Origin: Candidatus Mesolinea sp.
GTDB taxonomy: Bacteria > Chloroflexota > Anaerolineae > Anaerolineales > Anaerolineaceae
NCBI GenBank assembly: GCA_003445715.1
Contig: DMCS01000040.1
Location: 967-58,083, forward strand
DNA: 57,117 nt
Direction of reading: 5' to 3'
A program made the position numbers and the translations under genes. Each line of letters opens with the position of its first letter. Position 1 is the stretch's first letter. Positions 2,064-44,057 of this stretch are shown one piece after another. The notes under the pieces are model-generated. The model saw nothing but the letters and a program-made list of their open reading frames with translations. It did not search any database and had not been told where the DNA came from.

Positions 2064-3338
2064 ATGAAAATTTTTTTGGATATGGTTGGCTGCCGGCTCA
2101 ATCAGGCAGAGATTGAGCAGTTGGCGCTCGACTTGACTTCCCGCGGACAGGAAATTGTCGCAGAACCTGCAGAAGCGGATTTCGTGTTGATTAACACCTG
2201 CTGCGTGACAGCCAAGGCCGCAGCTGATTCGCGCAAGATGGTGCGCCACTATCAGCGTGAAACCGGTGCGAAAGTGCTGCCGATAGGTTGTTGGGTGAGC
2301 GCATTCCCGCAGGCTGCCGCGGAATTAGTTAACAGAAATGCAATTTACACCAGTGAAAATATGGATCAAATTCTTCAAATTTTTGAAAATTTAGAAACAG
2401 ATAATGCGCTGAAATGCAATGAAGCTGCTCGGCCTGATTTAGGGAACCGTACGCGCACACGGAGTTTTATCAAGGTGCAGGAAGGTTGCAACAATACCTG
2501 CAGCTATTGCCTCACGCGCATTGCCCGCGGGAAATCGAGAAGCATACCACCTGAGGAGGTTGTGCACCGCATCGGGCAAGCAGAAGATATGGGCGTGAAA
2601 GAAGTGGTGCTTACCGGCGTGCAAATTGGCTCCTGGGGGAAAGATTTGGAAGATAGTTTAAGGATTGCGGACTTGGTACAAGCAGTCTTAGCTCAAACTA
2701 GCGTGCAGAGAATTCGGATTTCCTCGATCGAGCCCTGGGATGTGGATGCGCGCTTATTAGCTTGCTTTGCAGATTCTCGCCTCTGTCCGCATTTGCACCT
2801 TCCCCTACAAAGTGGCAGTGACATCATCCTGAAGCATATGGCGCGCCCGATTACTACCAGCCGATATCGCGAGTTAATCCAAGGCATCAGCGCACTACTG
2901 CCAGAGATGGCAATCACAACCGATATAATCGTCGGTTTCCCTGGAGAAACAGATGCCCTGTTTGAGGAAACAATGCGGTTTCTTGCGGAAATGCCTTTTT
3001 CTGGCGGGCATGTGTTTAAATTTTCGCCCATGCCAGGCACACCTGCAGCTCAGCTTGAGGGTAAGGTGCCAGAGGCAATCAGCCATGTGCGCAGTAAGCA
3101 GGTACGCGATTTGCTCCAAGCCAAGACGCGTGCTATCCAAGCGCGCAAAATCGGCAACATCACTAAGGTGTTGTGGGAAAAAGGCAAGGAGAATAGCACC
3201 CAGAATAGCTACACCGGCTTTACGCCGGACTATTTCCGCGTGCGCACCCATAGCAATGTGGATCTTACAAACACGATCACGTTAACGCGTATCACCGCTT
3301 TGGAGCCCGCGGGCTTACTTTTGGGAGAGATAAATTAA
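2064..3338 (+). CDS. mtaB: Radical-SAM methylthiotransferase, MtaB/MiaB-like tRNA modification enzyme
   Basis: 424 aa. N-terminal UPF0004 domain (GCRLNQAE, INTCCVT) and radical-SAM CxxxCxxC (CNNTCSYC). The start is 2 nt after the upstream stop. Confidence 0.8.
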   Translation: MKIFLDMVGCRLNQAEIEQLALDLTSRGQEIVAEPAEADFVLINTCCVTAKAAADSRKMVRHYQRETGAKVLPIGCWVSAFPQAAAELVNRNAIYTSENMDQILQIFENLETDNALKCNEAARPDLGNRTRTRSFIKVQEGCNNTCSYCLTRIARGKSRSIPPEEVVHRIGQAEDMGVKEVVLTGVQIGSWGKDLEDSLRIADLVQAVLAQTSVQRIRISSIEPWDVDARLLACFADSRLCPHLHLPLQSGSDIILKHMARPITTSRYRELIQGISALLPEMAITTDIIVGFPGETDALFEETMRFLAEMPFSGGHVFKFSPMPGTPAAQLEGKVPEAISHVRSKQVRDLLQAKTRAIQARKIGNITKVLWEKGKENSTQNSYTGFTPDYFRVRTHSNVDLTNTITLTRITALEPAGLLLGEIN

Positions 3339-10396: not shown

Positions 10397-11278
10397 TCAT
10401 CCTGCAAAGAAATTTGCCGGTATACCAGGGATGAGCGTGCGAAGGTAGAAGAGATCGCCGGCTAAAGGTTGAGCGGTGCGCTCCTCTGGGCTTAATCCTG
10501 TGGAGGCTGAGGTGATATACAGATCGCGCAGGTCTTCGCCGCCAAAGGTTAGTGATGTCGGTCGGCTGACAGGCAAGCGAATTTCCTGCAGCACTTCACC
10601 CTCGGGCGAGAGCTGCAGTATACAACTGCCATCCCAAATAGCCACCCAGATATTCCCGGCTTGATCGACGCACAATCCGTCGGGCGTTGATGCGAGAGCG
10701 AGATTAGAGGGCACATAAAAAACTTCTGGTGCGCATAGCTTAAATCCTCTGAGATTGAACTGGTAGCGGTAGAGCGTTGAGGAACCAGAATCTACATAAA
10801 AACAATAGCGGTTATCTGGGCTCCAGTCGATGCCATTAGAAATTGTGACGCCTTCAAGCACAGTGGTTACCTTACCATCCAGGTCTAAGCAGAAGAGGGA
10901 GGAAGTGCCTTGGGGACCTTTGCTGCCTACCCAAAAGCGGCCAGCAGCATCAACCCGCCCATCATTCAGCATGTTGGCAGAGCCTTTGGGGTATAGGTCA
11001 ATGAAATTCGGGCTTAAGCCATGCTGCTCATTCCAAAATGCTAAGCCGTTTTCGGTCGCGATGACCAAGCCGCCTTTTCGTCGAAATGCGAAGCAGCCAG
11101 CACGTTTACCTAATGAAAAGGTTTCGATATGATCATTGTGAGGATGGTATCTGAATAACATCCCAGCTTCGATATCCAGCCAATACAAACAGGCTTCTAG
11201 TGGATGCCAGAGTGGACCTTCACCTAAAATTGTGTTGAGATGAATACAAGACTGCGAAAGCTGAGTTATTTGGGGCAT
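10397..11278 (-). CDS. SMP-30/gluconolactonase/LRE-family beta-propeller protein
   Basis: 293 aa. EGPLW near the N-terminus and NDGRVD, SNG(I/L)DWSPD, PDG..VD motifs typical of the SGL family. Confidence 0.85.
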   Translation of the reverse strand: MPQITQLSQSCIHLNTILGEGPLWHPLEACLYWLDIEAGMLFRYHPHNDHIETFSLGKRAGCFAFRRKGGLVIATENGLAFWNEQHGLSPNFIDLYPKGSANMLNDGRVDAAGRFWVGSKGPQGTSSLFCLDLDGKVTTVLEGVTISNGIDWSPDNRYCFYVDSGSSTLYRYQFNLRGFKLCAPEVFYVPSNLALASTPDGLCVDQAGNIWVAIWDGSCILQLSPEGEVLQEIRLPVSRPTSLTFGGEDLRDLYITSASTGLSPEERTAQPLAGDLFYLRTLIPGIPANFFAG

Positions 11279-11397
11279 ACTTCACCTTTCTTATGATGCT
11301 CTGGCTTGATTTTGCCATAAGCTTTGAGGGTTGACTTATAATTGACACATCGCTACATAAAATCACAGAAGCTCATTTCACAGAAACTTGCTGTGGA

Positions 11398-12258
11398 ATG
11401 ATTGCTGAAAGTGTAGGAGAAAAAATTTTAAATGAACTATGGAGCATCATGAATAACAACCAAATTACAGAATCTTCGAGCTTAGATTATAGGATTAAAC
11501 TATTTTCGACTCGTGGAAAGGAACCTTGGTTTATTTTGGCAGAATGCATTATCGTTGGAGCAGTTATAGGTGGTCTAATTAGTATATTTTTGAAACCAAT
11601 TTACGAGGCTAAAGCATTGATTACCACTAATATGGAATTGCACACGAATGGCACTATCACTGAAATTATGCTCGATGAACAGATTAGTCAAATCGGAGAA
11701 CTAGTCTTCCATCCGGATGTTGTTTCTAGCTTGATGGAAATTGAAGCAGCACAAGGTAATATGCTCACTTTGGAAGATTTACACAAAAAAACTGATATAG
11801 AGCGTCAACTTATGAATACTCTTATCAAAGTGAAGGATCACGATCCACAAGTAGCGGCACGCATTGCCTCTGAATGGGCTGAAATTCTATTTAACCGCCT
11901 CAATGAAGCATACACACATGCAGTTCGTCTCTCAGAGGCTAAGCTTATGTACGAAATTCTTAGTTCTTGTATAAATGATGCTTCAACAACTTATCAGTCA
12001 TATTGTGAATCCCTCACATATGACCAGATTCAATCTGAGTTGGATCACGTCAATTCTATTATCCTGGAGGAAAGCCCTAAATCTTTGGGGTTGATGTTGG
12101 CGCTAAACGTTAGCCAATATCAACCTGCAGCAATCCCAGCCGAACCACTATATTACCAGCGCGGTACGCTTATACTGTCTGGAGGAGGAATTGGATTAGT
12201 AGTTGGAATTCTCATTAACGAAGCTTTATATAATCAGAAAAAAACTCATGAGTTATAA
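11398..12258 (+). CDS. Polysaccharide co-polymerase (Wzz-like chain-length determinant), putative
   Basis: 286 aa. One TM helix near residue 50 and one near the C-terminus flank a helical soluble domain (PCP topology). Lies next to an O-antigen-ligase-like gene. The start is uncertain (alternative ATG at 11449). Confidence 0.45.
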   Translation: MIAESVGEKILNELWSIMNNNQITESSSLDYRIKLFSTRGKEPWFILAECIIVGAVIGGLISIFLKPIYEAKALITTNMELHTNGTITEIMLDEQISQIGELVFHPDVVSSLMEIEAAQGNMLTLEDLHKKTDIERQLMNTLIKVKDHDPQVAARIASEWAEILFNRLNEAYTHAVRLSEAKLMYEILSSCINDASTTYQSYCESLTYDQIQSELDHVNSIILEESPKSLGLMLALNVSQYQPAAIPAEPLYYQRGTLILSGGGIGLVVGILINEALYNQKKTHEL

Positions 12259-13786
12259 ATATAAAGAATCTTTCCTTAATATCTTTTGGGCTTTGTCATT
12301 AGTATCTTTGCCTGTTACAAGTTTTACACCTTTATCTAGATTATTTGGTGGCACCTCAGTTGCGCCGCTTTCTGCAATATTTTTGTCTATATTAGTAATA
12401 TTATACTTTCTTCCTCATTTTATAAAAACGAAATTAGTTCCTAGACATAGTTTGCCCATTTTGGTTTTTTTTCTCATTACATTGCTCACATTTGCGATGT
12501 CAACTTTTATCCCTTTTGAATCTTTCCGGGATGCTTCTTTTTTCCGAAATGCATTTGAAGGATTTGTTACACTCGCAATGGGCATCGGTTTTTATCTAAT
12601 AACAATATTTGTTATCCGAGATGAAAAATCTTTAAAGAAAACTATTTATTGGATTTATGTTGGAAGTATTATAATTATTTTCACTAGTTTACTACAAGCG
12701 ATTTCTTGGCAATATCTCGGTTACTATCCCCAATTTTTATGGAATATTCAATCCATATTTTCCTCTAGAGGAATGCTTTTTGAAAACCGTGTAACCGGGA
12801 TGGCTTTCGAGCCTTCCTGGCTGGCACACCAACTCAACACGCTCTACATTCCATTATGGTTAGGATTCAGCGTCAAAAATATTTCGATTTCGAAAAAGCG
12901 AATTTTTGGTATTTTGAGCCTCGAAAATATTTTGTTGGTCTTAGGTTTGGGAGTGCTTTTTCTCAGTTTTTCGCGGATTGGCTGGCTGACAACATTGGTG
13001 GTGTTTGCTTTCGCTATTTTCTATATAGCGAATCGGGCGATTAATCATTGGCTGAGCCAACGCAACGAAGCCTCCGGTAAAACAATCAGCCGTACGCGCC
13101 ACTTTATAACCAAATTTGGCATGTGGGTTGGGCTTCTATTGGTCGTTGGCTTGATGATTCTAGCCTCAGGAGTGCTCCTTTCGCGCATCGATCCCAGAAC
13201 GTCAGAACTCTTTAACATAGAGCGACTGCGACGTTTTGGCGTGTTGGGTTGGGCGAGTAAACTCGGCATTGCCGAGCGGTTGATTTACTGGATTACTGGC
13301 TTCCGTGTGTTCTTGGCACACCCGTGGTTTGGGGTTGGGTTAGGTGGCGCTGGGTTCTTTTTCACATCTTTAGTACCTGAGTTCGGCTACGGTTTGCCGG
13401 AGGTGGTCCGTTATCTCTTTTCGCTCAATATTGTACCCAACACAAAAAACTTATGGGTACGGTTGTTAGCCGAAACAGGAATCCTGGGCTTTGCTTTTTA
13501 TGTCTCTTGGGTTTACCTGCAATGGCGCGAAGCCGTTCAATTGGAGAGGACAGGTATGAGCGAACTGGAGCGGGCACTCGGGTTTATTGGCAAATTGTTT
13601 ATCTTGGCGCTAATCATGGAAGGCTTTAGCATGGATACGTTCGGATTACCATATTACTGGATCGCTTTAGGGCTCGTAGTCGCAGCCAGGCGCATCAGCC
13701 AACAAGCCAAAACCCCGCAAAGCGACGAAACCAGAGAAGAATTGACCCGTTCGATAGAGCCTCTGGAAAGCAATCAGCTTGCCTAA
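12248..13786 (+). CDS. O-antigen ligase / Wzy_C-family polytopic membrane protein
   Basis: At least 10 predicted TM helices. Wzy_C-like segment LSFSRIGWLTTLVV and a later HPWFGVGLGG loop. I chose ATG 12248; the ORF track starts at 12203. Confidence 0.7.
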   Translation: MSYKYKESFLNIFWALSLVSLPVTSFTPLSRLFGGTSVAPLSAIFLSILVILYFLPHFIKTKLVPRHSLPILVFFLITLLTFAMSTFIPFESFRDASFFRNAFEGFVTLAMGIGFYLITIFVIRDEKSLKKTIYWIYVGSIIIIFTSLLQAISWQYLGYYPQFLWNIQSIFSSRGMLFENRVTGMAFEPSWLAHQLNTLYIPLWLGFSVKNISISKKRIFGILSLENILLVLGLGVLFLSFSRIGWLTTLVVFAFAIFYIANRAINHWLSQRNEASGKTISRTRHFITKFGMWVGLLLVVGLMILASGVLLSRIDPRTSELFNIERLRRFGVLGWASKLGIAERLIYWITGFRVFLAHPWFGVGLGGAGFFFTSLVPEFGYGLPEVVRYLFSLNIVPNTKNLWVRLLAETGILGFAFYVSWVYLQWREAVQLERTGMSELERALGFIGKLFILALIMEGFSMDTFGLPYYWIALGLVVAARRISQQAKTPQSDETREELTRSIEPLESNQLA

Positions 13787-13800
13787 CAGCCGATGAGCGG

Positions 13801-38435: not shown

Positions 38436-39563
38436 ATGATCACTATTGTTCCAGTCAATAGCAAAAAACTACAAAAGCAATTTGTCGAATTCCAATACCA
38501 GCTCTACGAGAACTGCCCACAATTTACCCCACCGATAAAAAGTGATATTTACGCAATGATGAATCCTAAAAAGCATCCCTATTATGAGCATTCGGATGCC
38601 GATTTTTTTCTAGCACTGGATGGAGATAAAGTTGTTGGCCGTATTGCAGCCTTGCAAAACAAACCCTTTAACGCTTACCATCACACCAAGGATGCCGAAT
38701 TTTATCTGTTCGACTGCATTGATAGCCAAGAAGTTGCAAATGCACTCTTTGACCGGGTTGCGGAATGGGCGAAAGCCCGCGGAATGAACCGATTAGTGGG
38801 TCCTAAAGGCTTTGGCCCGCTGGATGGCTATGGCATTCAAATCGAGGGCTTTGAACACCACCAGATGATGAACATGATGAATTACAACTATCCTTACTAC
38901 CGCGATTTGGTGGAAAATTATGGCTTTGTCAAAGAGGTTGACTTTGTATCCAGTTATGTCAATCCACAGAATCTCGAGGTACCAGAAAAGGTGGCTAAGG
39001 CGGTAAGCATAGCCAAAAAACGCAACACACTGACAATCAAGAATTTTAAGAATAAAGCCGAAATCCGCAAATGGGCACCCAAGATTCGGGAAGCCTATAA
39101 CGGTGCTTTCGTCAATAACTGGGAATACTATCCTCTCACTGAGCGGGAGATTAACTTTGTGGTGGATAATGCCATCATTTTGGTAATTCCTGAACTTCTG
39201 CAACTGGTGCTCAAAGGCGATAAGGTGGTTGGATTTGTGCTGCCCTTTCCGGATGTCTCCGAAGCATTTAAGAAGAATAAGGGTAAATTAGGGCCGATTG
39301 AAATCTTGCGCATCCTGCGGGAAATCAATAAGACTAATTGGATCGACTTTAATGGCATCGGCATTTTGCCAGAAGCGCAAGGTTTTGGCGGTAACGCACT
39401 CATATATGACATTCTCATTCGATCGGTTAGAGATAATCCACGTTATCAGCATGCCGAGCTGACCCAGGTGGCAGAGACAGCGGAGCAGATGCGTAAAGAT
39501 TTGCTTAACCTCGGCTGCACGTTTTACAAGAACCACCGGGTGTATAAAAAAGCGCTCGCGTAA
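38436..39563 (+). CDS. GNAT-like N-acetyltransferase family protein (putative)
   Basis: 375 aa. Resembles a family of long GNAT-fold hypothetical proteins (C-terminal GILPE.QG.G.N). Assigned from memory only. Confidence 0.55.
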   Translation: MITIVPVNSKKLQKQFVEFQYQLYENCPQFTPPIKSDIYAMMNPKKHPYYEHSDADFFLALDGDKVVGRIAALQNKPFNAYHHTKDAEFYLFDCIDSQEVANALFDRVAEWAKARGMNRLVGPKGFGPLDGYGIQIEGFEHHQMMNMMNYNYPYYRDLVENYGFVKEVDFVSSYVNPQNLEVPEKVAKAVSIAKKRNTLTIKNFKNKAEIRKWAPKIREAYNGAFVNNWEYYPLTEREINFVVDNAIILVIPELLQLVLKGDKVVGFVLPFPDVSEAFKKNKGKLGPIEILRILREINKTNWIDFNGIGILPEAQGFGGNALIYDILIRSVRDNPRYQHAELTQVAETAEQMRKDLLNLGCTFYKNHRVYKKALA

Positions 39564-39583
39564 AATCAAAGCAAAACGCAATT

Positions 39584-39616
39584 AACAGCAGGCTTTATCA
39601 GAGTCTGCTGTTTTTT
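39584..39616 (+). terminator. Rho-independent terminator after the GNAT-like gene
   Basis: Stem AACAGCAG (39584-39591) / CTGCTGTT (39605-39612), 13-nt loop, T-run to 39616. Confidence 0.55.
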
Positions 39617-39679
39617 ATAGATGCACCCCAGGTATAATTGAAGAAAAACTCGTCTAGTTGGTAAAGGAGGGACAAGGCA

Positions 39680-40429
39680 ATGGCAAAATATAAACAGCGC
39701 AAGCGTAATCTCTATGAAAACACTTCCGATACTTATGCAATCTCACGATCTAAGATAGACCTGTTTATCAACTGCCCGCGTTGTTTTTATCTTGATAGGA
39801 AGCTTGGCTTGGCTCAGCCTTCCATGCCAGGCTGGCCTCTCAATTCTGCAGTTGATTACCTTCTGAAGCAGGAATTTGACTATTATCGAAAACTGCAACA
39901 ACCTCACCCAATTATGCTTCAATATGGCATTGATGCCGTCCCTTTTTCTCATCCCGATTTACCATTTTGGCGAGATGACGTCTACCATTATGTGGGGGCT
40001 TCCGTTGTGGATGAACAAACTGGTTTCCAGGTTCAGGGAATTATTGATGATGTATGGATCACACCTCAAGGGGAACTCCACATCGTAGACTACAAGTCCA
40101 CTTCTACCTCCAGTGAAATTAGTTTAGAAGATGAATATAAACGGCCTTACAAGCGTCAAATGGAAGTCTACCAATGGATTTTCAGGAAAATGGGCTTTAA
40201 GGTCTCCTCGGTGGGGTATTTTGTTTTTGCTAATGCTTTGAAGGACCGCGATTTTTTTGATAACAAACTTGAGTTTGAACTAACGATTCTCTCTCATCAC
40301 GGGGACGATTCTTGGGTTAGTCCCACTCTGATGGAAATGAAAACAGTTCTGGATAGCGATACTTTACCAGAGGCAAATCCTGATTGCGAATATTGTGAAT
40401 ACCGCCGGTTAATCAAAGAAGTGGAATAG
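39680..40429 (+). CDS. PD-(D/E)XK nuclease, Cas4/RecB-like with Cys cluster
   Basis: 249 aa. N-terminal CPRCFY, GIIDDV, the nuclease core IVDYKST, QMEVY, and C-terminal CEYCEY (2+2 Cys, potentially an Fe-S or Zn site). SD AAGGAGG lies upstream. Confidence 0.75.
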   Translation: MAKYKQRKRNLYENTSDTYAISRSKIDLFINCPRCFYLDRKLGLAQPSMPGWPLNSAVDYLLKQEFDYYRKLQQPHPIMLQYGIDAVPFSHPDLPFWRDDVYHYVGASVVDEQTGFQVQGIIDDVWITPQGELHIVDYKSTSTSSEISLEDEYKRPYKRQMEVYQWIFRKMGFKVSSVGYFVFANALKDRDFFDNKLEFELTILSHHGDDSWVSPTLMEMKTVLDSDTLPEANPDCEYCEYRRLIKEVE

Positions 40430-40647
40430 TCAAAAAGGGGAGCACATTGTTCCATGTCCGTTTAGGCACCAAAAAATCCCACAATCTGCCGGCGCCATGT
40501 TAATGCTCATGCCGATGATGGAGATCGGGCGTGTTTTTGTATTCCTGTGTTTCGTGAGTATGTATGTGGTTGTGGAAATGACTGTGTAGGATCTGCCTCT
40601 TAATGAACAATGCGCGTTAAAAACCTACCAATTATCTGAAATATTAG

Positions 40648-40671
40648 AGCGGGTGATGGGATTCGAACCCA
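40648..40671. repeat. Direct repeat copy 1 (orphan copy of tRNA-Gly 3' end; distal att site of island)
   Basis: AGCGGGTGATGGGATTCGAACCCA is identical to 42997-43020. The flanking bases differ on both sides. Confidence 0.85.
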
Positions 40672-40739
40672 TGGTACGGTATAATAGATAAATGATATAG
40701 GCTAATCTTAGTAAATTATCACAATAAATTTGCAATCAT

Positions 40740-42242
40740 ATGAAAACAATAATCGATCTTTCTAATGAAGAAGCAAAAGTTTATTTTCTTAAGGGAAGTA
40801 GCTATTTTAATAATGATTTGCCCAACTATGTTAGCTTTGAACCAATTCTAACTAATGTTTTGAAAATATTAGACGGAAATGATATCAAAATATTCCAAAA
40901 AAGAAATCCAAGTGATTTTTCAGATGTAAATTATAGTTTAATCACTAACAAAGATGGTAAATTTGCTTGGCGGCCGATTGAATTAATTCATCCAGTAATT
41001 TATGTTTCTTTAGTAAATTTGATATGTGAACCTACTAACTGGGCTATTATTTTGCAACGTTTATCAGAATTTGAGAGTGGGCCAATTGACTGCTGCAGCT
41101 TGCCGACGGTATCTACTGATCAACAAAAAGATGTTGAGGAGACAATAAAAAATTGGTGGCAAGAAATTGAGCAAAAATCTTTAAAACTTTCTTTAGAATA
41201 TAGCCACATCCTTCAAACTGATGTAGTAGATTGTTATGGTTCTCTTTATACACACAGTATTCCTTGGGCAATTCATGGACGTGATGAATCAAAGAAAAAA
41301 AGAGCGGATAAATCTCTATTAGGAAATAAAATTGATAGTCTAATCCAAGCGGGTAGATATGGACAAACCAATGGAATTTCTCAAGGTTCGACTTTAATGG
41401 ACTTTATAGCGGAACTTGTTCTTGGATTTGTTGACTCACAAATCAGTCAAGAATTAAAAGATAAAAAAATAGAGGATTTTCATATTCTTAGATATCGTGA
41501 TGATTATAGAATTTTTGGGAACAGCGATGAGACGGTTGAAGCTATTTTACAAGTGGTTAGTGAAAAATTAAGAATGGTGGGCATGAAATTAGGAACATCC
41601 AAGACACAATTAAGCAGAAATATTGTAGGTGGATCTATAAAACCAGATAAATTAGCTGCTATAGCGTTGTCTGATTTAGGGGAAGAAAATGCACAGACAT
41701 TACAAAAGCAACTTCTTCGGCTTCATTCTTTTGGCCTACAATATCCTAACAGTGGTGCGCTTCGACGTTTACTTAGTATTTATTATAAAAATTTATCTGA
41801 TAACAAGGGAAAGCCAAAAGACCTTGAGGTATTATTAGCAATTGCAACTGATATTGGGTTTGTTTCCCCATCTACCTTTCCAGGTATAGCTGGTATATTA
41901 AGCTATTTGCTCTCACTAGCTCCACCTGGACAAAAAAATAACTTGTGGGATAAGGTACTCAAGAAAATGAAGCATATTCCTTATAATGGATTTCTTGAAA
42001 TATGGCTTCAACGAATAGTCGTACCAAAAGAAATAAACATCTCGTTTGAAAGTGCTGAGGCAATATGTAGAATTGTTAATGGTCAATCCATAAATTTGTG
42101 GGAAAACGGATGGATTTCTAATAATGATCTCAAGAAGGCATTAGATACCTCAAATATTGTCGTAAAGATTGCATCTGAAGTAGAGGAAGTTGTCCAATAT
42201 GACGAAATCGCATTATTCAACCAGAAGGCAATAGAATATTAG
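40740..42242 (+). CDS. Reverse transcriptase, UG/Abi/DRT-like (defence-associated type)
   Basis: 500 aa. Motif A LQTDVVDCYGSLYTHSI (Asp161). Motif B GISQGSTLMDFIAELVL. Motif C ILRYRDDYRIF (Asp254-Asp255). KLGTSKT beta-hairpin motif. About 150 aa N-terminal extension and about 200 aa helical C-terminal region. Confidence 0.85.
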   Translation: MKTIIDLSNEEAKVYFLKGSSYFNNDLPNYVSFEPILTNVLKILDGNDIKIFQKRNPSDFSDVNYSLITNKDGKFAWRPIELIHPVIYVSLVNLICEPTNWAIILQRLSEFESGPIDCCSLPTVSTDQQKDVEETIKNWWQEIEQKSLKLSLEYSHILQTDVVDCYGSLYTHSIPWAIHGRDESKKKRADKSLLGNKIDSLIQAGRYGQTNGISQGSTLMDFIAELVLGFVDSQISQELKDKKIEDFHILRYRDDYRIFGNSDETVEAILQVVSEKLRMVGMKLGTSKTQLSRNIVGGSIKPDKLAAIALSDLGEENAQTLQKQLLRLHSFGLQYPNSGALRRLLSIYYKNLSDNKGKPKDLEVLLAIATDIGFVSPSTFPGIAGILSYLLSLAPPGQKNNLWDKVLKKMKHIPYNGFLEIWLQRIVVPKEINISFESAEAICRIVNGQSINLWENGWISNNDLKKALDTSNIVVKIASEVEEVVQYDEIALFNQKAIEY

Positions 42243-42348
42243 ATTAATTAATACTAGAAACCAAAATAACATTAACTTTTATCTAAACAGATACATATAA
42301 TAACTCACTGTGGCAAGTGATTCGATTCGAATTACAATCTATAATTAA

Positions 42349-42954
42349 TTGGATATGGATAATCAATCAAAATCAAAATGGGAACATTTTCTTGACCCAG
42401 AAGTTTTAAGGCCAAACTTAATTTTTGCATCAATTTATATTGCTGCTTTTGAAATCCTGCAAAATTCTATTGTTGAGCGGATTAAAGATTTTTATACAAT
42501 AGAATTTAATGAAAATGGTTCGATAATCATGCCTGAATATCAAGAAGACGTTTTATCCAAAGATAAAAGTCATACTTATGCTTCGCTGAAATGGCTAAAA
42601 GAAAATAGTGCAATTGATGATGAAGATTTTGAAAAGTTCGAGAAAATCAAAGATTATCGTAATCTTTTGGCTCATGAGATTTCAAGAATGTTGATGGATG
42701 GTCTACCGCCTGATATTGGAGATAGATTTAAGGACATGATTTCATTATTAGACAAGATAGAAAAATGGTGGATTATCAATTTTGAGATTCCGATAAATCC
42801 GGACTTCGATGGTAAACACGACGAAATTAATGAAAGCGAAATATTTCCCGGACCAATTTTGATCTTGAAAATAATGATTGATGTTGCTCTCGGATCTGAA
42901 GAAGAGGCAAATTTCTATATAAATGAATATAAGAAAAGCTTAAGAAGCTCATAA
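42349..42954 (+). CDS. HEPN-like (Rx4H) putative RNase effector partner of the RT
   Basis: 201 aa, soluble and predicted helical by eye. KIKDYRNLLAHEIS contains R104-N-L-L-A-H109, the HEPN Rx4-6H signature with Asn after Arg. The start could be TTG 42349 or ATG 42355. Confidence 0.5.
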   Translation: MDMDNQSKSKWEHFLDPEVLRPNLIFASIYIAAFEILQNSIVERIKDFYTIEFNENGSIIMPEYQEDVLSKDKSHTYASLKWLKENSAIDDEDFEKFEKIKDYRNLLAHEISRMLMDGLPPDIGDRFKDMISLLDKIEKWWIINFEIPINPDFDGKHDEINESEIFPGPILILKIMIDVALGSEEEANFYINEYKKSLRSS

Positions 42955-42996
42955 TCAATTTTGGGGGAAAACATAATGCTGAAAGGGCGGAAAAAA

Positions 42997-43020
42997 AGCG
43001 GGTGATGGGATTCGAACCCA
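42997..43020. repeat. Direct repeat copy 2 (within the intact tRNA-Gly 3' end; proximal att site)
   Basis: Identical 24-mer to 40648-40671. Covers tRNA positions from the 3' half of the T-arm through the discriminator base. Confidence 0.85.
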
Positions 43021-43068
43021 CGAATGGTAGCTTGGGAAGCTACTGCCTTACCACTTGGCGACACCCGC
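42997..43068 (-). tRNA. tRNA-Gly (anticodon CCC)
   Basis: Folded by hand. 7-bp acceptor stem GCGGGTG/CACCCGC. D-arm with GG loop. 5-bp anticodon stem GTAGC/GCTAC with loop TT-CCC-AA. 5-nt variable loop. T-arm GTGGG-TTCGAAT-CCCAT. U discriminator. CCA is not encoded. Confidence 0.9.
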
Positions 43069-43197
43069 TTTGCACATATATTTTATCGCAAATTTTCAAA
43101 ACGCAATCGCTTTGTCTCCAAAAAACACCAAATTTCTTTTTATCCTTATAATTAGGGTTGATCAGGCGCGATCGAAACTTAAAAAGGAGAGCAAACT

Positions 43198-43623
43198 ATG
43201 GACGCAAGTGCTAAGAGGGAGCAATTTCAGCGAAAAAAACCCTCAGCCCTAAAATTGTTTTTAAATTCGCGTGGTAATTCTTTTAAGTATGCTAGCCGAG
43301 GGTTGCGCTATGTCATCCGCACACAAAAAAACGCCTGGATCCATTCTGCGATAATGCTCGTAGTCATTGCAGTTAGTTTTTGGCTGCAATTAGAACGCAT
43401 GGAATGGGTAGCGATCCTTTTGGTCATTGGCATGGTATGGACGGCAGAATTTATTAATACCTCTTTAGAGAGCATTGTTGATATGACCAGCCCAGAGCGC
43501 CATCCGCTCGCGCAAGTAGGCAAGGATGTTGCTGCTGCAGCAGTTCTGTTTGCTGCGATTATCGCTGTTATTGTTGGAATCTTGGTTCTAGGCCCACATT
43601 TGCGAATTAAACTTGGGTTGTAA
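43198..43623 (+). CDS. dgkA: Diacylglycerol/undecaprenol kinase (DgkA family)
   Basis: 141 aa with 3 TM helices. R..N..IH, E.(I/L)NT..E..VD motifs. SD AAAGGAGAG lies upstream. Confidence 0.85.
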   Translation: MDASAKREQFQRKKPSALKLFLNSRGNSFKYASRGLRYVIRTQKNAWIHSAIMLVVIAVSFWLQLERMEWVAILLVIGMVWTAEFINTSLESIVDMTSPERHPLAQVGKDVAAAAVLFAAIIAVIVGILVLGPHLRIKLGL

Positions 43624-43703
43624 TAAAGTTGAATAAGGTTTCAACTTTTCATGGAAATTATTCATGTATACTATCGTCAGAAATTAATTGAAGGAGATTA
43701 TAA

Positions 43704-44057
43704 ATGATTAGTGAACCGATTCATGTGACTGACGCAGCATTCCAGAAGACCGTGCTGGAATCCCCCGTCCCTGTGATTGTGGACTTTTGGGCACCTTGGT
43801 GTGGTCCCTGCCGAATGGTTGCGCCCACCTTAGAGAAGGTTGCCAAAGAATATGCTGATAAACTCATCGTAGCTAAGGTCAACACCGATGAAAATCAACA
43901 ATGGGCAAGCAAATACAATGTAGAAGGTATTCCAACAATGTTAATGATCGCTGACGGGAAAGTGGTGCATCGCCAGGTGGGGGCATTACCTGAGCCGATG
44001 CTACGGGAGGTCATCGATCAGTTCTTGAAAGTAGTTGACGGCCACAAGAAGAACTAA
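43704..44057 (+). CDS. trxA: Thioredoxin
   Basis: 117 aa. Active site WAPWCGPCRM. SD GAAGGAGA lies upstream. Confidence 0.95.
   Translation: MISEPIHVTDAAFQKTVLESPVPVIVDFWAPWCGPCRMVAPTLEKVAKEYADKLIVAKVNTDENQQWASKYNVEGIPTMLMIADGKVVHRQVGALPEPMLREVIDQFLKVVDGHKKN

Follow-up and report, generated by a model that had tools for sequence, protein, structure and literature searches.

A stretch of 57,117 nucleotides from Candidatus Mesolinea sp. (Anaerolineaceae, Chloroflexota), here called the window, carries at 40740..42242 on the forward strand an intact reverse transcriptase (RT) gene of 500 amino acids, which by its sequence is a member of the AbiP2 family of Class 1 UG/Abi polymerases. We consider it probable, at roughly 80%, that the gene encodes a stand-alone AbiP2-family abortive-infection polymerase with an Abi-P2-type mechanism, as judged by homology, that it is carried as the cargo of a small island, and that the HEPN-like gene beside it is a separate module. 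The family is already known and well studied and the window RT is an ordinary member of it; the island context, with a facultative HEPN-like neighbour, is newly found here.

The family was assigned by comparison of profiles, sequences and structures. The PADLOC profile AbiP2 (PDLC03744) matched the RT with E = 3.9e-192, residues 1-497 aligning to positions 4-487 of the 489 in the profile, and the second-best PADLOC family was UG14 (E = 9.8e-50), with Drt6 at E = 2.7e-48. The sequence of the Abi-P2 structure (PDB 7r08) aligned over residues 1-462 with E = 5.5e-80, and the founding, phage-borne RT of P2-EC30 is 34.7% identical with 92% of the query covered. The Foldseek search with the predicted model of the RT placed 7r08 on top (E = 2.5e-18, 464-472 aligned columns), followed in order by DRT4, UG15, DRT6, AbiK and AbiA. 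Pfam gave RVT_1 alone (E = 1.1e-11), and the NCBIfam equivalog Drt4 scored 119.6 bits, below its cut-off of 450. The full-length AbiP2 match stands far above the sister families, and the homology spans both the RT-like fingers and palm (approximately residues 1-300) and the helical C-terminal domain (approximately 300-500). An earlier note on this DNA, made from the letters alone, had placed the enzyme among the UG/Abi-type defence RTs and proposed a comparison with RVT_1 and UG/Abi profiles; the placement is borne out by PADLOC, 7r08, Foldseek and the P2-EC30 match, and the two profiles compare as given above.

Conservation was counted over 145 diverse representatives of the AbiP2 family and, separately, in an alignment of 29 close homologues. 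The motifs lie where the earlier note had put them, the first recognisable one (WRPIELIHPVIYVSLVNLI) beginning at residue 77, motif A (DVVDCYGS) at residue 161 and RYRDDYRIF at residue 251 with YRDD at 252-255, followed by KLGTSKT at 283-289. The motif A catalytic aspartate, Asp161 (TDVVDCYGSLYTHS; codon 41220..41222, forward strand), is invariant in the close homologues and is Asp in 144/145 representatives. The conserved fingers/palm motif QTNGISQG in the motif B region (residues 209-216; 41364..41387, forward strand) keeps each of Q209, T210, N211, G212, Q215 and G216 in 137-143 of the 145. The motif C catalytic box RYRDDYR, with Arg at the x position of YxDD (residues 251-257; 41490..41510, forward strand), has R251 in all 145 representatives, R253, D254 and D255 in 144 each, Y256 in 141, Y252 in 130 and R257 in 129, and all nine residues of RYRDDYRIF are identical in the E. 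coli Abi-P2 of 7r08. YRDD had been described as non-canonical, which is correct against retroviral or intron RTs only; within AbiP2, where a single representative departs from R253, it is nearly invariant. KLGTSKT (41586..41606, forward strand) closes the series of conserved palm motifs, with the helical domain following it; K288 is kept in 145/145 and T289 in 141/145, and to call it thumb-proximal was a misnomer because Abi polymerases have no thumb. Misplaced motifs or catalytic aspartates lost among homologues had been named as grounds for dropping the UG/Abi reading; the motifs are correctly placed and the aspartates are conserved in 144/145. The RYRDDYR box and the predicted priming tyrosine are family-wide constants which are useful for annotation.

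The long N- and C-terminal extensions described earlier are present, but they are the normal anatomy of the family and not oddities. The N-terminal one is, by alignment, the fingers segment with the putative priming tyrosine: Tyr30 (PNY30VSF; codon 40827..40829, forward strand) occupies the alignment position of Tyr61 in the 541-residue Abi-P2 construct, which lies in the alpha2-alpha3 loop of the fingers, and is the predicted primer, being invariant in the 29 close homologues and Tyr in 138/145 representatives. The C-terminal one, approximately 200 residues which had been read as helix-rich, is helical in a structure prediction of the kind the earlier note had suggested, with nine predicted helices in residues 321-499; the helix-rich stretch which that note quoted begins at residue 321, and the region aligns to the helical domain of 7r08. 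As modelled, it is a helical (alphaRep) domain replacing the thumb. Confidence in the model is modest (pLDDT 65, TM approximately 0.4 to 7r08), and nothing is claimed from it about structural detail.

Abi-P2 is template-independent, primed at Tyr61, trimeric and without a thumb, and the Y61F change abolishes its synthesis (PMC9508834). PMC9226505, which describes AbiP2 as a stand-alone protein of RT and alpha-repeat parts, cites a report that P2-EC30 protects by abortive infection from phage T5. The window RT, which is only approximately 35% identical to the characterised Abi-P2, would most likely act by protein-primed, template-independent synthesis of ssDNA leading to abortive infection. By homology to the E. 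coli enzyme it may form trimers or hexamers, would prime DNA at its own tyrosine (predicted Tyr30) and would extend random-sequence ssDNA with no template, Asp161, Asp254 and Asp255 being the presumptive catalytic residues and the helical C-terminal domain probably standing in for the thumb and cradling the nascent strand. The trigger model is borrowed from DRT4 and DRT6 and not from Abi-P2; in the DRT4/DRT6 defence model a phage ssDNA-binding protein protects the ssDNA product (PMC12783706). By analogy, the ssDNA made by the window RT may normally be held harmless, and a phage factor may cause it to build up until the infected cell and the phage are halted.

The closest known system, Abi-P2 of E. 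coli P2-like prophages (P2-EC30 orf570, PDB 7R08), has the same length class and two-domain layout as the window RT, and its priming Tyr61 and DNA-contacting Tyr282 correspond to Y30 and Y252; both are stand-alone genes on mobile DNA. The two differ in host, which is an enterobacterium for Abi-P2 and an Anaerolineaceae member for the window RT, and in carrier, a prophage variable locus as against a 2.3-kb integrase-less tRNA island. DRT4 (UG15) and DRT6, the next-best structural and profile matches, are families distinct from AbiP2; each works as a single gene and synthesises random ssDNA primed by protein, and theirs is the only tested activation model (PMC12783706). AbiK and AbiA of Lactococcus resemble AbiP2 in being template-independent, protein-primed and thumbless and in having a C-terminal domain that is helical; their helical domains are unrelated in sequence to that of the window RT, and the similarity is confined to the palm region (PDB AbiK, E = 2.9e-11 over residues 158-256). 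The RT itself changes little in what is known of these enzymes; it adds a Chloroflexota member to a family whose structure and biochemistry are already characterised.

The RT gene is the cargo of an inserted island of 2,325 bp (40672..42996), delimited by composition, an empty site in a sister genome and a metagenome contig, at the 3′ end of a tRNA-Gly(CCC) gene (42996..43069, reverse strand; ARAGORN, Rfam tRNA 65.2 bits). The GC content is approximately 0.32-0.35 in the island and 0.47 in the flanks. Two ORFs make up its whole gene content, the RT gene and its HEPN-like neighbour, so that the island has no integrase. It is bounded by a perfect direct repeat (24/24 nt), of which the right copy (42997-43020) is the 3′ 24 nt of the tRNA gene and the left copy AGCGGGTGATGGGATTCGAACCCA (40648..40671) is a displaced, att-like tRNA-Gly 3′ end. 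The empty site was found assembled in the sister genome L167, where BLAST homology stops exactly at 40671 and the HSPs overlap by 24 nt; in the contig, from metagenome run X3, 40647 is followed directly by 42997, so that 2,349 bp are absent, and the two sides share 24 nt. The read depth of the island relative to its flanks is approximately half in run X1 and a tenth in run X2. The island resembles CIME-type elements, which are att-flanked derivatives of integrative elements that have no integrase, in its short cargo, direct repeats from a tRNA 3′ end, precise empty site and lack of a recombinase of its own; if the 24-nt repeats recombined and the island was lost, the same signature would be left. 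The RT of locus L171 (68% identical) adjoins a tyrosine integrase, and similar mini-islands at other tRNAs (L004, L052) illustrate the shuffling of single defence genes between genomes. What the window adds is a cleanly bounded 2.3-kb defence cassette without integrase, with occupied and empty tRNA sites in natural populations. A second low-GC patch, at 11-13 kb of the window, carries polysaccharide genes (Wzz, O-antigen ligase), and no integrase or defence gene was found in it.

Only 68 nt of non-coding DNA had been described upstream of the RT. This number is correct as the spacing from the 24-nt repeat at the island boundary to the RT start, but the gene-free interval is actually 310 nt (40430-40739). 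The 68-nt leader is approximately 94% conserved in L087, a diverged version of the island, and TATAAT was read in it by eye at 40680..40685 (forward strand); the consensus promoter scan missed this hexamer, and it is therefore only a possible -10 element.

The second gene of the island (42349..42954, forward strand) encodes 201 amino acids from TTG 42349 or 199 from ATG 42355, and carries the Rx4H motif RNLLAH at 42658-42675 (forward strand), whose R104, N105 and H109 are invariant across 40 homologues. The Pfam and PADLOC matches among these homologues were all sub-threshold, namely to Pfam DUF4145 (23/40), HepT (14/40) and HEPN_Cthe2314 (10/40), and to PADLOC Csx1 (21/40) and CARF_HEPN (10/40). 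The predicted model is confident and helical (pLDDT 89.5); Foldseek against the PDB listed HEPN proteins on top with a best E of 0.5, which is not significant, and neither PHROGs nor a profile comparison with the sequences in the PDB gave anything significant. The neighbour is a separate, facultative module, and it is dispensable because the HEPN-like gene has stop codons in L087 and is deleted, with a remnant left, in a further island version, L173, both of which have kept an intact RT. Around the RT the neighbours are essentially all different over 80 genomic loci. This HEPN-like family is uncharacterised and occurs repeatedly beside AbiP2 genes; it is a candidate defence gene in its own right.

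It is also conceivable, though unlikely, that the two genes form one defence system in which infection is sensed, or the partner restrained, by the RT or by the DNA that it makes, and the HEPN-like protein is the RNase effector, in parallel to AbiA (an RT-HEPN fusion), UG22 with HEPN and the type IX retrons. RT-HEPN pairings recur among UG/Abi systems (PMC9226505), the RNxxxH motif is invariant, and two usually solitary families turn up side by side in several contexts unrelated to one another, with either gene leading: RT first in the window, in L087 and, as a remnant, in L173, and HEPN-like gene first in L082/L083 and L051, where no bounding repeats or tRNAs were found around the L082 and L051 pairs. 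An RT at 3/86 HEPN-like loci is far above random adjacency, but the pair occurs at just one of the 80 RT loci and in only 2/36 loci that extend 700 nt or more each way, and no RT lies near the next-closest HEPN-like homologues (66-71% identity). The partners are separated by approximately 106 nt with promoter-like matches inside the spacer, and the literature lists AbiP2 as stand-alone (PMC9226505). In AbiA the HEPN part is fused and constant, whereas in the window it is a separate facultative gene. An obligate RT and HEPN system was rejected on the co-occurrence counts and the two independent losses of the partner. A looser arrangement, to which we give slightly less credence, is a facultative module in which the covalent random ssDNA of the RT, or the RT itself, would gate the HEPN RNase, on a cassette moved by a recombinase encoded elsewhere; if true, a tRNA cassette without an integrase would carry a sensor and its effector as a minimal pair resembling a retron.

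Far less probable is that the RT is a decaying, non-functional remnant in a degraded island. As evidence of selection on the intact RT, dN/dS against L087 is 0.47 for the whole gene and 0.35 for its core. The missing integrase and the only moderate constraint at 0.47 would agree with decay, but the full-length ORF retains all family-invariant residues, and the RT is intact in three diverged island versions (window, L087 and L173) whereas its neighbour decays. The sign of transcription is thin, a single 206-nt metatranscriptome contig, the RNA contigs being fragmentary and one 'RNA' run possibly containing DNA.

The poorest candidate of all is a templated enzyme, either one that copies a nearby ncRNA as retrons, DRT2 and DRT9 do or an RT of the group II intron kind. 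Its RT domain weakly resembles the group II intron (TIGR04416, 38 bits) and retron (NF038233, 20.8 bits) profiles, but these scores are far below the cut-offs of 300 and 235, and the closest characterised relative, Abi-P2, is template-free. Retron and group II intron RTs were rejected on these cut-offs, on domain content (RVT_1 only, without maturase (X) or endonuclease domain) and on Rfam, where the tRNA was the only match over 39000-44000 at E <= 1, with no msr/msd or intron RNA; the absence of these hallmarks and of intron-like flanking RNA agrees with what had been read from the letters. The non-coding DNA of the island next to the RT, 68 nt and 106 nt, has no convincing or conserved structure. 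Fold z-scores of the non-coding stretches flanking the RT and HEPN-like genes were 0.45, -2.24 and 0.04; neither the 68-nt leader nor the 42-nt tail has a fold of note, and the weak hairpin in the 106-nt spacer (approximately 42318-42340, z = -2.24) is broken by a 28-nt deletion in L087. A dedicated ncRNA in the island was rejected on these grounds, and the earlier expectation of no large template ncRNA stands.

Carriage of the window RT subfamily by phages was also considered and rejected, as the scan of IMG/VR with peptide patterns of the subfamily found no relatives. The AbiP2 relatives present in GenBank phages belong only to distant E. coli and Listeria lineages.

The RT gene (40740..42242, + strand, 500 residues) encodes an ordinary member of AbiP2, a known and structurally characterised family. 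The PADLOC AbiP2 profile was matched at E = 3.9e-192, with residues 1-497 lying on profile positions 4-487 of 489, and the runner-up PADLOC families (UG14, Drt6 and Drt4) all fell between 1e-50 and 1e-38. The closest solved structure was Abi-P2 of an E. coli P2-like prophage (PDB 7R08; E = 5.5e-80, residues 1-462), which has the identical RYRDDYRIF box, and P2-EC30 and P2-EC58, the phage genes that founded the family, were found at ~35% identity with 92% of the query covered. The AlphaFold model of the RT is of modest quality (pLDDT 65); it was compared with known structures and 7R08 ranked first (E = 2.5e-18), followed by DRT4, UG15, DRT6, AbiK and AbiA. The earlier note had placed the enzyme among the UG/Abi-type defence RTs, and the full-length AbiP2 match, together with the first rank of 7R08 by sequence and by model, bears this out. 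In the classification of Mestre et al. AbiP2 falls in Class 1 of the UG/Abi RTs (RT plus alpha-repeat); the protein works on its own, and the family is highly mobile (PMC9226505).

The motifs read from the sequence alone in the earlier note were located at the residues given there, namely WRPIELIHPVIYVSLVNLI at residue 77, DVVDCYGS at 161, RYRDDYRIF at 251, KLGTSKT at 283 and the quoted helix-rich stretch from 321. RVT_1 (residues 128-292, E = 1.1e-11) is the sole Pfam domain of the RT, no maturase or endonuclease domain was found in it by Pfam, and the Rfam search over 39000-44000 at E <= 1 returned nothing but one tRNA; with the motif positions, these results confirm the original observation. 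The scores of the RT against NCBIfam models were below the cut-offs for a group II intron maturase (38 bits vs 300), a retron (20.8 vs 235) and Drt4 (119.6 vs 450), and with the Pfam and Rfam results they agree with the reported lack of retron and group II intron hallmarks. The 68 nt said to lie upstream of the gene are correct as the distance from the end of the 24-nt repeat at 40648-40671 and not as the distance from a gene, the gene-free interval 5′ of the RT being 310 nt (40430-40739).

The conservation of these residues was analyzed at two depths. Among 29 close homologues R251, R253, D254, D255, Y256, R257 and D161 are invariant. An exhaustive phmmer search with the RT against 1.84 billion cluster representatives gave 561 clusters at E <= 1e-30, and the diverse set consisted of 145 full-length representatives with 36-53% identity to the RT. 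In this set R251 is present in all 145, R253, D254, D255 and D161 in 144 each, and Y252 in 130 (Phe in 10). Because R253, D254 and D255 are near-invariant here, YRDD with Arg at the x position is, on these counts, the hallmark of the AbiP2 family. The YRDD box and the long N- and C-terminal extensions, which had been taken as peculiarities, are present and are not odd, as they are the defining traits of the family. What was read as an N-terminal extension corresponds to the first portion of the fingers and bears the predicted priming tyrosine. Figiel et al. reported that DNA synthesis by Abi-P2 is abolished by Y61F and not by Y46F (PMC9508834), both numbered on a 541-residue construct. In the 7R08 alignment Tyr61 corresponds to Y30 of the RT (PNY30VSF), which is invariant in the close homologues and Tyr in 138/145 diverse members; Tyr46 corresponds to Y15, a position occupied by Phe in 104/145. 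The residues called a C-terminal extension form the helical domain; Abi polymerases have this domain instead of a thumb, hold the growing single strand with it and assemble their trimer through it (PMC9508834). Membership in AbiP2 and conservation of the catalytic and priming residues are established for the RT at the level of sequence.

By homology to Abi-P2, the RT would act as an oligomer which synthesises ssDNA without a template, protein-primed at Y30. For the downstream anti-phage logic the DRT4/DRT6 type of model is most likely by analogy; these are neighbouring stand-alone families, and their model is the best-tested one. In DRT4/DRT6 random ssDNA is made constitutively and cleared by a host 3′-5′ exonuclease, and the ssDNA-binding protein of phage T5 shields it so that toxic ssDNA builds up (PMC12783706); the product of the RT would accumulate toxically in the same manner during infection. 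AbiP2 of P2-EC30 is cited in PMC9226505 as active against T5. The earlier argument against a large template ncRNA is consistent with these data: the non-coding DNA adjoining the RT inside the island amounts to only 68 nt and 106 nt, the folding test of these two stretches gave no convincing structure (z = 0.45 and -2.24), and in the closest relative a 28-nt deletion breaks the small hairpin of the 106-nt stretch.

The RT lies in a tRNA mini-island bounded by a perfect 24-nt direct repeat, AGCGGGTGATGGGATTCGAACCCA (40648-40671 and 42997-43020), the right copy of which is the 3′ end of a tRNA-Gly(CCC) gene (42996-43069, - strand). GC is ~0.32-0.35 in the 2,325 bp that the repeats enclose vs ~0.47 around, and this interval contains only the RT and a 201-aa ORF, with no integrase among these genes. 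Judged by the names in the cluster of EF-P, the host belongs to Anaerolineaceae. A sister MAG (GCA_036744375.1) has the same order of FtsH, EF-P, GNAT, PD-(D/E)XK, tRNA-Gly, DAGK and thioredoxin without the island, its BLAST segments stopping at 40671, restarting at 42997 and overlapping by exactly 24 nt. In metagenome run X3 a contig fuses 40647 to 42997, omits 2,349 bp and has 24 nt that match either side, and the island/flank read depth is about half in run X1 and about a tenth in run X2. From this empty site and these three runs it is concluded that the island is a precise insertion which is polymorphic in nature, and an integrase-less tRNA island so cleanly resolved, with natural empty sites, adds slightly to the interest of the locus. 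At 90% clustering the RT is the sole member of its cluster; that of the flanking PD-(D/E)XK gene has 173. This Cas4-like nuclease gene (39680-40429, + strand) lies just beyond the island and is common in Anaerolineaceae; it is missing between GNAT and the island in the diverged version L087 and has no AbiP2 association elsewhere. Run X2 also has contig joints at 39556/42992 and 42082/42991, with anchors of only ~30 nt, and the latter may represent an RT-only island like that of L173, a second diverged version.

The 201-aa neighbour (42349-42954, + strand) carries an RNxxxH motif, belongs to no family catalogued in Pfam or PADLOC, and is probably a HEPN-like RNase. R104, N105 and H109 are invariant in 40/40 members of its family (~184 clusters, without a Pfam domain), and its structure model is helical and confident (pLDDT 89.5). 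The weak profile matches of these members are all to HEPN-type families, both in Pfam (DUF4145 23/40, HepT 14/40, HEPN_Cthe2314 10/40, RiboL-PSP 6/40) and in PADLOC (Csx1 21/40, CARF_HEPN 10/40), and the Foldseek hits, though non-significant, have Csm6, HepT and other HEPN structures at the top.

It is unlikely that the two genes form one system. The families adjoin each other in several contexts that are unrelated, with the RT first in the window and L087 and the order reversed at L082/L083 and L051, so that an RT stands beside the HEPN-like gene at 3/86 HEPN-like loci, far above random adjacency; however, only 1/80 RT loci have a HEPN-like gene alongside, neither family has a recurrent partner, the HEPN-like members being mostly solitary in variable neighbourhoods, and the three pairs are no closer mutually than ordinary family members. 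Most telling are the two diverged relatives in which the neighbour is lost and the RT is intact. In L087 (RT 89% identical) the HEPN-like ORF (2630-3232) is interrupted by in-frame stops and lacks 28 nt at its start, and the RT shows a dN/dS relative to the window of 0.47 overall, falling to 0.35 in the core. In L173 (RT 71% identical), whose locus matches the window in PD-(D/E)XK, RT, tRNA-Gly and DAGK, the HEPN-like gene (region 2127-2353) has its body deleted and its last codons alone are left. Both relatives have a degenerate left att repeat (20/24 nt). We regard the RT as autonomous and the HEPN-like gene as a separate or accessory module; a neighbour which is recurrent yet dispensable raises the interest slightly.

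Other AbiP2 genes also lie in compact units with repeats at the borders, and the family may often move in minimal cassette form. Two of these units are single-gene mini-islands: L004 (5752-7629) consists of tRNA-Asn, the RT and a 36-nt tRNA repeat, 1.8 kb in all, and L052 (4134-7798) has a tRNA-Lys and a 45-nt repeat around 3.6 kb. In L001 (4424/6166/7265), L026/L027 (L026: 629/3200/4725) and L072 (936/2598) AbiP2 sits among short repeats or in arrays that resemble cassettes. In L171 (120-3290) a 68%-identical RT directly follows a tyrosine integrase and an ORF of 118 aa, with no tRNA or att repeat within the 7.3 kb available, and this is possibly an integrase-bearing counterpart of the mini-island. 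AbiP2-like genes occur in 220 plasmid records, and the GC of the RT is below that of its flanks at most loci; repeat-bounded units, plasmid carriage and low GC match the highly mobile label of the literature. A second RT paralogue (~545 aa) with a conserved partner of ~220-250 aa lies within a few kb of the AbiP2 gene in L022 and L080, which points to different UG/Abi RT systems gathering in defence islands. A second low-GC patch of the window (11000-13800, GC 0.36-0.39), encoding Wzz-like and O-antigen-ligase-like proteins, is a polysaccharide locus unrelated to the RT island.
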